Notes under the pieces: model-generated
Database searches by the model: none
Told to the model about the DNA's origin: nothing
Seen by the model: only the letters and a program-made list of their open reading frames with translations
In this document: positions 13,737 to 30,884 of the stretch, one piece after another
Position numbering within the stretch: position 1 is the stretch's first letter
Layout: each line of letters opens with the position of its first letter
Position numbers and translations under genes: made by a program
Virus record (IMG/VR): IMGVR_UViG_3300032293_001294
Location: 11,710 to 75,709 of that record
Length of the DNA stretch: 64,000 nucleotides
Strand: one strand, 5' to 3'
DNA from: a virus

Positions 13737-14402
13737 TTATTTTTTAATGATGTCGGCTTCGTATAGGAAGTCGTCTGTATCTTCCGTCACCCACGCATGT
13801 TCTTGTTCGCAGCTATATTCTTGCGTGTTGATCTTCCATGGTTTACCTTCGTACTTTTTCGTCACGAAGCTCGGCTCATACCATCTTAAGATCCGGTTGT
13901 TCGGCTGTAGTGCAAACTGTCCTGTCGACAACATGATGAAGTGATGCGACTTATGTTCCTGCGGATCTTCTGACAGTGTCATGTCCATCCCGTTGTTTTC
14001 GTTCGCACCCCACTGGACTGTGTACAAGTAAGTCCCTTCGAGTGTCGTTCGGTTCTTCATCCTGACATCGACACTGGCGTTATACACGTAGTTGAGTGTG
14101 ACTAAGGAGAAGACTTTAGAGAAGCAGTCCCATAGTTGTAGCGCATGGAACGGATACGTATCCCAGACAGACTCATCTTCTGGTATCTTCCAAGCCAGCG
14201 CCGAGATCGGCAACTTGTCTCGCATCATCCCATACTCAGTCAAGACTTGGAACAAAGCAGCAGACCCTTCGTTGCATCGGATCGAGATCAAGATCGCCTT
14301 GGTGTACTTACCGCGGTGGATTGGATTCTCAGGATCGTCAAAGAAGAACCCGTCGCGTACGAACACTTTCATCGGTGGCAGACTAGTTTCAATGTATGGC
14401 AT
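13737..14402 (-). CDS. Conserved phage protein of unknown function
   Basis: LPISAL...LQLWDCFS...EHKSHH...GQFALQPNNRI, a pattern I recognise from other phage hypothetical proteins; AGGAG RBS. Confidence 0.8.
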   Translation of the reverse strand: MPYIETSLPPMKVFVRDGFFFDDPENPIHRGKYTKAILISIRCNEGSAALFQVLTEYGMMRDKLPISALAWKIPEDESVWDTYPFHALQLWDCFSKVFSLVTLNYVYNASVDVRMKNRTTLEGTYLYTVQWGANENNGMDMTLSEDPQEHKSHHFIMLSTGQFALQPNNRILRWYEPSFVTKKYEGKPWKINTQEYSCEQEHAWVTEDTDDFLYEADIIKK

Positions 14403-14493
14403 GTTTAACTCCTACAGGTATTGTAACACAGGCAACACAGAAATACACAAGAACCTGCACTGTTCGTGCACCTGCTTCTGTTAGCCCAAGCGG

Positions 14494-14619
14494 TTATTTC
14501 TGCTTGATCTCACACACGCCGTCTTGGCAACCCTCTTCGGCCAGCTTATCCCAGTAGGTCTTATCGAACTTGATCGTGACTTTAGGTTGACGCTTTTTAG
14601 TCTTTGGTTTCTTAATCAT
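14494..14619 (-). CDS. 41-aa basic peptide ending in GCQDGVCEIKQK
   Basis: Hand-translated; GGAGG RBS at 7-nt spacing and its own extended -10 promoter. Confidence 0.65.
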   Translation of the reverse strand: MIKKPKTKKRQPKVTIKFDKTYWDKLAEEGCQDGVCEIKQK

Positions 14620-14637
14620 AGGTTTACCTCCAGGTTT

Positions 14638-14646
14638 AGTATATCA
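14638..14646 (-). promoter_or_regulatory. Extended -10 promoter (TGATATACT)
   Basis: Same 14-mer as at 9081-9094. Confidence 0.55.
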
Positions 14647-14844
14647 CAGCTGATGTCTTTACAGGATCGGCTGTGTTTGGGACTTCACGTCCTACGAAGT
14701 GCTAGCTTTAAGGAGCCATCTTTAAAAACAAGGCGCTTGGTAGTGTAGGTAGTATATGTGGGCTCCCCCCTTAGAGTATCCTATGGATAGCTATATGATA
14801 TATATATATATAAGGAGATAAGGTACTGGTGGTAAATATTTTAT

Positions 14845-14871
14845 ATATACTACATATACTACATATACTAC
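14845..14871. repeat. Three tandem ATATACTAC 9-mers, plus an inverted copy at 14749-14757; iteron-like
   Basis: Read directly; flanked by (TA)n tracts at about 14798-14812 and 14948-14966. Confidence 0.7.
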
Positions 14872-15388
14872 TTCTTACGTCTGGGACGGTTGGATTCGGT
14901 TTGTGGTTATGCTACATGTGTACTACCAATTGGAGAATGGGTCACTAATATATATTTATATATATACCCCCAAATTCAGAAACATCCATTTAAGAACCAC
15001 CCCCACCCCCCTACCCCCTATGTAGGCACCGAAACAATAGGTACAACGTAAAAACGTCATACCGCAAGGTATCACCTCCTCTGCGCGCCAGAGCATAAAC
15101 AACCCGTAGGGCACAGTAAACTTTCAGTTTACGATCAGTGCATCACAGATGTTGTTGGCTCTATACGCGTTCTCTCTACCTTGATTCATAAGTTTCTTCG
15201 AGTACCTCTATTTGTAAATGCCACATTCTTTAATATTTTCTTCTTAGATCACATGATTATGCTTATCCCACATACAACAGTAACCTCACCGGCCCCCTCG
15301 TCCCCTCGGGACCCGCTACCTCAACGCTTTGAGGCTCACTGCGTTCGCCCACATTGTTAAATCTAGTACAAAAGAAAGGAGATTGTGT

Positions 15389-15718
15389 ATGGAAAAACCA
15401 ACCAATTCTCAAGTAAAGGAATACCTTTACACCGAAATCCCCGGAACAAAACGGGTTGTTGCCGCGTCCGAAGTATTCTACCAAAACGGGTGGGATAGAG
15501 AAGCCGGTGCACCTACCGGACTTTTCGACCGCCAAACTACCTTACTTGGTGAAGTGTTAACCCCCGTGGTTGCCGCTTTTATCAAGGACGCTAATGGTAA
15601 TTTAGTGGCGAACCCAAAAGTGGGACAACCCGTTAATTCTACCACCCCCGACGCTTACTTGGGCGTCCAACTCAAACGCGAGTTGAACCCTAAGTTTGTG
15701 AAAGCAAGCGACCGGTAG
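15389..15718 (+). CDS. First early gene, 109-aa hypothetical (start MEKPTN)
   Basis: AAAGGAG RBS before ATG 15389; followed by a terminator. Confidence 0.8.
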   Translation: MEKPTNSQVKEYLYTEIPGTKRVVAASEVFYQNGWDREAGAPTGLFDRQTTLLGEVLTPVVAAFIKDANGNLVANPKVGQPVNSTTPDAYLGVQLKRELNPKFVKASDR

Positions 15719-15732
15719 TTAGTTTGTGAATT

Positions 15733-15760
15733 GAAAGCACCTAATCAGTGCTTTCTTTTT
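15733..15760 (+). terminator. Intrinsic terminator
   Basis: GAAAGCAC/GTGCTTTC stem followed by TTTTT. Confidence 0.75.
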
Positions 15761-15777
15761 CACTTAAAAACCCAAGA

Positions 15778-16007
15778 CGTAGCATCATACAATCTACGAC
15801 CAGTGTTATAAATTAACACTCAATCAAACATGTGTGGGATGTCCCCACCAATAATCATGGGCGCACCACCCGATACACAACATGTGTATTTTGGTGCATT
15901 AGAGGCAACCAGCGGTAATCAATCCGACTGGTATTCATAAGTCCTCTACCAATGAACTAATAGGGTAACTCCCTTAACAGTTCACCACAATATAGGGTTG
16001 TGACCTA
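15778..16007 (+). ncRNA. Candidate structured RNA/leader with at least 7 consecutive hairpins
   Basis: Adjacent inverted repeats separated by C/A-rich linkers; no credible ORF. Confidence 0.5.
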
Positions 16008-30292: not shown

Positions 30293-30628
30293 ATGTTCAA
30301 ATATTTATTTAATGGAGTTATTTATAGTGCAGATACAATCGAAAACTTGCAAAGTATACTTACTAAAGCAGGTTATAAAGGAGATGTTATCGCTGAGTTC
30401 GAAGCAATTAATAAAGAGAACGAAGAACAAGATAATGCTGCTAAAGAATATTTAAAAGAAGAAGCAGAAGATTTTTCATTAAAAGAAGAAGCAGTACAAG
30501 AATCTGCAAATGATCTTAGTCAAAAAGAAATAGATCAAATGTTTAATGAATCAGCTGTTGATGTAGAAGAAAATTCTGATGGTTCATTTTCTGTTGTAAC
30601 AGAAAAATCTTTTAATGATTTAAATTAA
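30293..30628 (+). CDS. Acidic hypothetical protein
   Basis: AAAGGAG RBS; E/D-rich. Confidence 0.75.
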   Translation: MFKYLFNGVIYSADTIENLQSILTKAGYKGDVIAEFEAINKENEEQDNAAKEYLKEEAEDFSLKEEAVQESANDLSQKEIDQMFNESAVDVEENSDGSFSVVTEKSFNDLN

Positions 30629-30676
30629 ACTACACGTTTAGCCCACGTTACGGGCTCTCTAACTAAACTCTTTAAT

Positions 30677-30761
30677 GGGGTAGTCGGGTAAGACATATCA
30701 CTTTAGCAGATGCTCCTGCTTAACATATGTAACGTGGGTTCAACTCCCACCTACTCCACCA
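30677..30761 (+). ncRNA. tRNA-like RNA resembling an isolated tmRNA tRNA-like domain (Ala identity)
   Basis: Acceptor GGGGTAG/CTACTCC with G3:U70, ACCA end, T-arm GTGGG-TTCAACT-CCCAC, stemless D-loop TCGGGTAAGA. Confidence 0.75.
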
Positions 30762-30844
30762 AAGAGTTTAGTTAGGTTAACTTATTACGGCACCCAATAA
30801 GTTGATACATCACTCCTTCCTTTCATGTACGGGTGCCAAGTATG

Positions 30845-30878
30845 TCTAGGATAGCAAGCTGATTACTTGCTACCTAGA
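30845..30878. terminator. Hairpin between convergent units, probably a bidirectional terminator
   Basis: TCTAGG-A-TAGCAAG / CTTGCTA-CCTAGA followed by TTACTTTT on plus. Confidence 0.65.
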
Positions 30879-30884
30879 TTACTT

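Follow-up and report, generated by a model that had tools for sequence, protein, structure and literature searches.

The stretch of DNA that we analyzed (64 kb; hereafter, the window) covers positions 11710-75709 of a 75.7-kb IMG/VR virus record that was estimated to be 69% complete. A replication module encoding a primase, a helicase, PolA, an exonuclease, and a Sak4-like protein lies on the plus strand, and an ORF of 8230 codons converges from the minus strand on the RNA cassette described here. The gene for an 85-nt RNA, a putative homologue of the tRNA-like domain (TLD) of tmRNA, sits in the 256-nt gap between these convergent genes and starts 48 nt past the final gene of the long co-directional operon. 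The features assigned at the locus are as follows:

30293-30628, plus strand: last ORF of the replication module, upstream of the RNA gene
30640-30656, plus strand: upstream hairpin from folding, 5 bp (AGCCC/GGGCU), 7-nt loop (ACGUUAC)
30659-30673, plus strand: 5' strand of a 15-bp clamp, pairing with 30761-30775
30677-30761, plus strand: putative TLD-only tmRNA homologue, 85 nt
30677-83/30751-57, plus strand: acceptor stem, 7 bp, with G3:U70
30684-92, plus strand: stemless D-loop, 9 nt
30693-98/30725-30, plus strand: helix 2, 6 bp, directly after the stemless D-loop
30699-704 and 30721-24, plus strand: internal loops above helix 2
30705-09/30716-20, plus strand: cap hairpin, 5 bp, with a 6-nt loop
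30731-33, plus strand: AAC linker
30734-50, plus strand: T arm, standard
30758-61, plus strand: discriminator A (A73) and encoded CCA
30761-30775, plus strand: 3' strand of the clamp, beginning at the terminal A of CCA
30779-30837, plus strand: H-type pseudoknot, with stem 1 at 30779-86/30796-803 and stem 2 at 30789-95/30831-37
30845-30878, plus strand: long hairpin from folding, with a conserved loop (CUGAUUA), then a U-rich run
30885-55577, minus strand: ORF of 8230 codons, converging on the RNA cassette

Scans for sigma-70-like promoter and terminator consensus sequences gave no match near the RNA gene. No RNA sequencing run was listed as containing the stretch, two metatranscriptome contig sets from a study whose DNA contains it included no matching contig, and no match to the RNA locus was found by blastn among 50,697 isolated phage genomes. 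With regard to the neighboring sequences, the GC content of the 8230-codon ORF is ∼26-28%, compared with 33-45% in the rest of the phage, and the C-terminal 1000 residues of its product are 29-49% identical between phages whose PolA proteins are 91-96% identical. At 14400-16000 of the window, an ORF-poor, divergent region of ∼45% GC between minus-strand and plus-strand gene blocks contains AT-dinucleotide runs, direct repeats (TACATATAC, three copies), and C-tracts; this region, which had no Rfam match, may be an origin or a promoter region.

The letters and the layout that an initial annotation of this DNA had given for 30677-30761 on the plus strand matched the sequence, and the minimum-free-energy fold of the 85-nt RNA (-25.9 kcal/mol, z = -2.24) consisted of exactly the parts described there. 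For the D-loop, the stemless reading held and the boundaries were adjusted: alignment to the class model described below gave UCGGGUAAGAC as the best reading, which is the usual xUGGUUUCGAC minus one or two bases, with the conserved GG and GAC retained. The identity set of alanyl-tRNA synthetase (AlaRS) comprises G1:C72, G2:C71, G3:U70, G4:C69, and A73, and all of these elements were found in the window RNA. Helix 2 encloses only 26 nt; the layout is tRNA-like, and the mRNA-like domain, in which a tag frame would run from a resume codon to a stop codon, is absent. One candidate tag frame in the cap (GCA GAU GCU CCU GCU UAA) was rejected because it is restricted to the 85-nt form and absent from other family members. 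In addition, the UAAA...CC/GG motif above helix 2, which is carried by most class members including the nearest relatives, was lost in the window variant.

Neither a tRNA nor a tmRNA was called by ARAGORN in the window or in the whole 75.7-kb record, and Rfam searches of the 64-kb window at gathering thresholds returned nothing. The tmRNA model RF00023 matched the 85-nt RNA with 37 bits (gathering cut-off, 47 bits), with an E-value of 3e-13 in a local search and 3e-11 across the whole window, and this was the sole Rfam match in the 64 kb at E ≤ 1. The alignment spans model positions 1-374, with 45 bases standing in for the 326 internal positions that it skips, and none of the pseudoknots PK1-PK4 was found between the two strands of helix 2 in the fold. 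The mt-tmRNA model RF02544 gave no match at the 85-nt RNA; its sole weak match (27.7 bits against a cut-off of 65 bits) fell elsewhere, inside the 8230-codon ORF. The initial annotation had named an aberrant tRNA-Ala as the alternative, that is, a tRNA that still decodes using the UGC of the cap loop (AUGCUC). The RNA shares with tRNA-Ala the G3:U70 acceptor stem, A73, CCA, and the T arm, and its score with the tRNA model RF00005 (28.1 bits) is little below the cut-off of 29 bits; however, no strong canonical tRNA score was obtained, the D stem is absent, the cap loop has 6 nt instead of the 7 nt of an anticodon loop, and no anticodon is conserved. We concluded from these comparisons that the 85-nt RNA is neither a tRNA nor a full tmRNA, and that it is the two halves of the tmRNA TLD joined by a short cap.

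We addressed the conservation of this RNA by analyzing its close relatives. An exact search of IMG/VR with the 3' half of the RNA returned seven contigs, and searches keyed on the unusual D-loop returned one further viral contig and 14 metagenome contigs. The resulting subfamily consists of nine distinct sequences of 79-87 nt from freshwater phage contigs, and eight metagenome contigs carry the 85-nt form of the window, either unaltered or with a single difference. The first 16 bases (the 5' strand of the acceptor stem and the D-loop, UCGGGUAAG) were unchanged in all nine sequences, with independent support coming only from acceptor positions 5-7, since the search patterns fixed the D-loop and G1-G4. 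In contrast to this near-invariant core, the cap above helix 2 is hypervariable, differing in both length and sequence between all forms; thus, there is neither a conserved anticodon nor a conserved tag frame. Covariation among the homologues, which the initial annotation had suggested as a check, was observed in both helix 2 and the T stem. In particular, helix 2 is formed by five unrelated pairing sequences (ACAUAU/AUAUGU, ACAAUCU/AGAUUGU, UUAACCUA/UAGGUUAA, UAUUAC/GUAGUA, and a fifth in contig L152), the T stem changes by compensatory substitution from GUGGG/CCCAC to AUGGG/CCCAU or AGGGG/CCCCU, and one acceptor pair becomes U:G within the subfamily. This pattern points to selection acting on the TLD core alone. 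It also bears on the tRNA-Ala alternative: relatives with the same core have caps such as UUAU, UUAACU, CUAUAA, and GCAC, so that a decoding tRNA appears very improbable. One of these caps, that of the mini-tmRNA at L149:9032-9114 (plus strand), is a 7-bp hairpin (GUUUCGA-CUAUAA-UCGAAAC) whose TATAAT-containing palindrome is the same as that of repeated intergenic hairpins found shortly 3' of the element in L005 and L155; the L149 cap thus seems to have received a mobile or regulatory hairpin by insertion.

The carriers of the subfamily fall into two groups. The PolA proteins of L004, L006, L007, and L008 are 91-96% identical to that of the window, and a second phage group comprises L002, L005, L128, and L151, in which the PolA of L128 is 31% identical to that of the window. 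A near-identical core at this level of PolA identity is, on these comparisons, strong conservation. Strain variants from two other metagenomes fell in the flanks, with none inside 30658-30764. Whole records were available for five relatives (one of them 92% complete), and each contained exactly one mini form and no full tmRNA; likewise, none of the homologues, all of 79-87 nt, had the full mRNA domain that would have marked the window copy as a deletion remnant. We concluded that the 85-nt RNA is a real, conserved phage gene, as far as sequence can establish it.

A looser scan of IMG/VR, in which we searched for GGGG, a tRNA-type T arm, and UCCACCA at a spacing exceeding that of a normal tRNA, yielded tRNA-Ala genes together with ∼30 sequences of 78-88 nt without an ARAGORN call. 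These ∼30 sequences have a common plan, in which a G3:U70 acceptor stem and the D-loop AUUGGUUUCGAC precede a 6-7-bp helix 2 that leads into a (G)UAAA(G) internal loop and a small CC/GG hairpin; GGAC and the T arm come next, and the 3' strand of the acceptor stem and the discriminator complete the RNA. A covariance model (R1) was trained on 10 phage TLD-only sequences, none of the subfamily of the window; it was built on a cleaner subset because MAFFT alone misaligned the 5' ends of the class. R1 matched the relatives of the window over their full length with 49-57 bits, and it recovered an 83-nt RNA of mycobacteriophage DS6A (JN698994, 28478-28560) with 60.2 bits. The window RNA itself was matched over its full length with 41 bits (E = 5e-7), barely above the scores of up to ∼39 bits that R1 gave on ordinary tRNA-Ala genes; thus, its class membership leans on the closer-scoring relatives and on the failed tRNA detectors. 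In a structural alignment of 33 sequences, including those of the window and DS6A, 97.8% of the cells pair, compared with 68% in shuffles and ∼52% when the partners were slid; this alignment was fitted to the model, and the candidate filter demanded acceptor pairing and not helix 2. Compensatory changes were observed in 14 of the 18 pairs, including all six pairs of helix 2, and G3:U70 was present in 33/33 class members. Together with the end-to-end RF00023 match and the failed tRNA detectors, the class model and this covariation bear out the proposal of the initial annotation that the RNA is a tmRNA TLD without a tag frame and pseudoknots.

A second, class-specific pattern matched at least 120 contigs in IMG/VR. 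Among the matches listed, 73 of the 74 loci checked had a full-length R1 match (49-84 bits), and these 73 loci comprised 59 distinct sequences of 78-84 nt, many without an encoded CCA; a tRNA gene was located within 500 nt in only 13 of them. Several further sequences were noted. A 69-nt gene of the T4-like Pantoea phage Phynn (MN038175, 13462-13530; L162:1468-1536, plus strand), labelled 'tRNA-Ser', has G3:U70, GGAC preceding the T arm, and ACCA, and it scored 43.4 bits with the TLD-only model; this gene may be a mis-annotated mini-tmRNA. A 49-nt sequence at L038:13140-13188 and L041:11233-11281 is reduced to an acceptor stem and a T arm, with a few loop bases and GGAC between them, and has G3:U70, ACCA, and an R1 score of 40.9 bits, and it may be a still smaller TLD minihelix or a fragment. 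The looser scan also returned a recurrent tRNA-Ala of 78-80 nt with an enlarged D arm (GGGACUGCUUGGGGUGGUC), a longer variable region, and the anticodon UGC, GGC, or CGC, which ARAGORN called as tRNA-Ala; it was found mostly on large phage contigs (L012, L018, L019, L023, L033, L051, L052, L068, L083, L093, L108, L118, and L123).

The DS6A RNA has been described previously. Hudson, Lau and Williams 2014 (PMC4131195) entered this RNA (tmRNA Website tmID 11587) as 'TLD only' and, citing Mao et al. 2009, state that a similar molecule strongly inhibits tmRNA, chargeable or not, perhaps via SmpB titration. A 2025 database paper (PMC11915505) reports inhibition of the endogenous tmRNA of E. coli by the DS6A form, a result obtained in that species with an RNA different from that of the window, and places DS6A alongside mitochondria and two plastids as a source of CDS-less tmRNAs. 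Besides DS6A, no other phage TLD-only tmRNA was named in the literature that we searched. Both the DS6A RNA and the window RNA are phage-encoded, ∼80 nt in length, and recovered by one covariance model, and both combine a G3:U70 acceptor stem, a stemless D-loop, a short helix 2 with a small hairpin, and a T arm with the absence of a tag frame and pseudoknots. However, DS6A is a GC-rich temperate actinophage with an integrase, whereas the window RNA belongs to AT-rich, apparently virulent freshwater phages. The DS6A RNA has no encoded CCA and ends in ACUA, whereas the window RNA encodes CCA; compared with that of DS6A, the D-loop of the window RNA is also one or two bases shorter, AAC takes the place of G(G/C)AC ahead of the T arm, the cap is different, and the surroundings include a 15-bp clamp and a neighboring pseudoknot. 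On sequence and structure, we concluded that the window RNA is of the same kind as the published DS6A RNA, not a new class, and is a somewhat reduced member of this known but very sparsely documented kind. The genes of this kind are far more common in uncultured phages than the literature searched reports.

Similar relationships were observed with cellular and organellar RNAs. The halves of the TLD align end to end with those of bacterial tmRNA (SsrA, RF00023), with which the window RNA shares its alanine identity elements and T loop; however, in the window RNA ∼45 nt replace the ∼325-nt body, and the resume codon, the tag frame, helix 5, and PK1-PK4 are absent. The CDS-less organellar tmRNAs (RF02544 in jakobid and other mitochondria; ∼65 bp in Mallomonadaceae plastids) are likewise reduced to the tRNA-like domain and presumably act together with SmpB but add no tag (PMC11915505). 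These RNAs differ from the window RNA in lineage and sequence, and each is the rescue RNA of the organelle itself, whereas the window RNA is a viral addition beside a full cellular tmRNA.

The RNA gene of the window is embedded in a conserved cassette. The upstream hairpin, which begins 12 nt past the stop codon of the ORF at 30293-30628 and occurs once in the window, was 100% paired in nine relatives, with an invariant loop and one compensatory change from A:U to G:C; it is possibly a weak terminator or a protector of the 3' end of the upstream mRNA. All 15 clamp pairs were retained in nine relatives, one of them changing on both sides from C:G to U:A, and the strain variant A30765G keeps the pairing as G:U. 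Only three unpaired bases (AAU) separate the 5' strand of the clamp from G1, and the clamp and the acceptor stem form a near-continuous 22-bp helix. Because the 3' strand of the clamp starts at the last A of CCA, the mature 3' end would be buried in the precursor duplex. We infer that this helix may be a processing site for a double-strand RNase, which would free the ends for RNase P and 3' trimming.

Adjoining the mini-tmRNA, the H-type pseudoknot is conserved in the phage group of the window, and both of its stems covary (GGCACCC/GGGUGCC compared with GGCAUUA/UAAUGCC, GGCAUCC/GGAUGCC, and GUACCA/UGGUAC). Its 27-nt loop contains an anti-Shine-Dalgarno-like, C/U-rich tract ending in CUUUC (e.g., CACUCCUUCCUUUC), which resembles the 3' end of 16S rRNA and is complementary to the AGGAG-type ribosome-binding sites of the phage. 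A minus-strand mini-ORF behind AGGAG in this loop was considered and rejected, as its AUG is not conserved (e.g., in L148). The long hairpin lies 7 nt beyond the stop codon of the minus-strand 8230-codon ORF, and both partners are replaced in six of its 13 pairs among the relatives; although it was not called by the consensus terminator scan, it is probably the terminator of the RNA cassette, and perhaps a bidirectional one.

Two explanations start from this cassette. According to the first, the TLD-only RNA is half of a larger unit and acts jointly with the pseudoknot RNA (30779-30880), either as the head of a split tmRNA with an unlinked template part, or as a tmRNA head and an anti-Shine-Dalgarno decoy that derive from one precursor and are held together by the clamp. 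The conservation and covariation of the clamp, pseudoknot, and hairpin beside the TLD in the phage group of the window fit such a unit, as do the complementarity of the pseudoknot loop to the ribosome-binding sites and the fact that the leader and trailer would remain paired over 15 bp once the TLD was excised. However, the second phage group (L002, L005, L128, and L151) has the same TLD core with neither the clamp nor such a pseudoknot, and thus the flanks are not needed for the role of the TLD. Moreover, no conserved tag-like frame was found 3' of the pseudoknot, where the short frames differ and lack an Ala-Ala end, and Rfam detected no other tmRNA-like piece in the window at E ≤ 1. We consider joint action of this kind unlikely. 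According to the second explanation, the element is an RNA-processing mark, that is, mainly a substrate of RNase P and RNase III that fixes where the replication-operon mRNA ends on its 3' side, and the RNA that is cut out has no role. Its site, shortly after a long operon, within a 15-bp duplex, and following a conserved hairpin able to cap the mRNA, would suit this purpose; yet an acceptor/T-arm minihelix would suffice for processing, many class members are located in other contexts, and the invariant G3:U70, the D-loop GG...GAC, ACCA, and the homology to the tmRNA TLD would be left unexplained. A mere processing mark is similarly unlikely in our view.

With respect to the host, the strong AGGAG-type ribosome-binding sites of the phage argue against Bacteroidota. 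Metagenome runs from 15 studies contained the stretch or parts of it, most of them only a minority of its sampled words; wherever these runs carried a habitat label, it was freshwater or lake water. Among 185,579 genomes (one per species), the exact 3' half of the TLD was found only in two uncultured Bacilli tmRNAs and three tRNA-Ala genes. Both Bacilli are from rabbit gut (26% GC, 1.2 Mb), and the 351-nt tmRNA of one of them has acceptor and T stems identical to those of the phage RNA. However, the acceptor stems of their order relatives differ, and their habitat is not the freshwater of the phage. A bin with a matching tRNA-Ala gene carries an unrelated tmRNA. Contig L134 (CAIQHW010000454.1) is AT-rich and contains a tRNA array (Val, Pro, Leu, and Ala), and the tmRNA of its bin (2.6 Mb, 41% GC) is unrelated to the acceptor stem of the tRNA-Ala on the contig; this contig may be a mis-binned phage fragment.

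The identity of the acceptor and T stems to those of the two low-GC Bacilli tmRNAs also bears on whether the element is an attachment site or a decayed fragment of a host ssrA gene. Phages commonly integrate at tmRNA genes, and the 3' ends of these genes are copied in attP. However, both halves of the TLD are present and paired in the phage RNA, covariation is seen in helix 2, phages at 31% PolA identity still have the form, and no integrase (tyrosine type) was found among the six records. An attachment site or an ssrA remnant is therefore the least credible of the explanations that we weighed.

We proposed, with a probability of about one half and by analogy with the DS6A RNA, that the best explanation for the 85-nt RNA is an alanylatable SmpB decoy without a tag template, which blocks ssrA tagging by the host. 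The RNA would be transcribed at the end of the replication-gene operon, within the 15-bp clamp helix, and excised by host RNases, with RNase III cutting in the clamp, RNase P cutting at G1, and trimming of the 3' end to CCA. Host alanyl-tRNA synthetase would then charge it via G3:U70 and A73, and the RNA would bind SmpB and, once charged, also EF-Tu. No SmpB gene was found in the phage record; thus, any SmpB partner must come from the host. In excess during infection, the template-less RNA would compete with host tmRNA for SmpB and stalled ribosomes, so that tagging and degradation by the ssrA system would be switched off for the proteins made in the infected cell. In this scheme, SmpB binding by the window RNA is an assumption, given its shortened D-loop and a linker of AAC instead of GGAC.

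A second functional explanation, tag-free ribosome rescue, is possible, and we hold it more tentatively than the decoy. Here the Ala-charged mini-tmRNA and host SmpB would accept the stalled nascent chain, and the protein would be freed with one extra Ala and remain undegraded. Either drop-off together with peptidyl-tRNA hydrolase or an ArfB-like factor would bring about this release, and the phage would regain its ribosomes and keep its proteins. To our knowledge, no mechanism is known for the release of a peptidyl-TLD that lacks a stop codon, which counts against this explanation, and the decoy model fits the present sequence data equally well. In its favor, the alanine identity elements and the encoded CCA are strictly conserved, as expected if charging is needed. 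A pure SmpB sponge needs no charging, and thus this conservation favors a role for charging; inhibition occurs 'whether or not chargeable' according to Hudson 2014. Furthermore, in jakobid mitochondria and some plastids, CDS-less tmRNAs are found together with SmpB and presumably still help with incomplete mRNAs (PMC11915505). The proposals of the initial annotation, namely sequestration of SmpB or EF-Tu or the addition of Ala without tagging, would both agree with the published DS6A TLD-only RNA.

A broader reading, which we regard as doubtful, is that the locus is a processed non-coding cassette whose two RNAs jointly act on host translation, the TLD disabling or redirecting SmpB-dependent rescue and the pseudoknot either binding ribosome-binding sites or the 30S subunit or serving as an unlinked template. 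On the same reading, TLD-only mimics would be present in hundreds of phage lineages, as a common and largely unreported counter-measure and not that of one mycobacteriophage.

Trans-translation is the main ribosome-rescue and protein-tagging system of bacteria and an antibiotic target. In the literature that we searched, a natural RNA that switches it off was known from a single phage. The same TLD-only device is, by our comparisons, also carried by unrelated, apparently virulent, AT-rich freshwater phages, in which its core is under strong selection, and at least 120 IMG/VR contigs bear such genes, which suggests that phages commonly interfere with SmpB-tmRNA. The value of the finding lies in the breadth of the class, in the natural variation that it offers for a minimal TLD, and in the conserved cassette that surrounds the gene. 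In particular, with its shortened D-loop and freely variable cap, the family constitutes a natural series of minimal TLDs, from which the true requirements of AlaRS, SmpB, and EF-Tu could be worked out.
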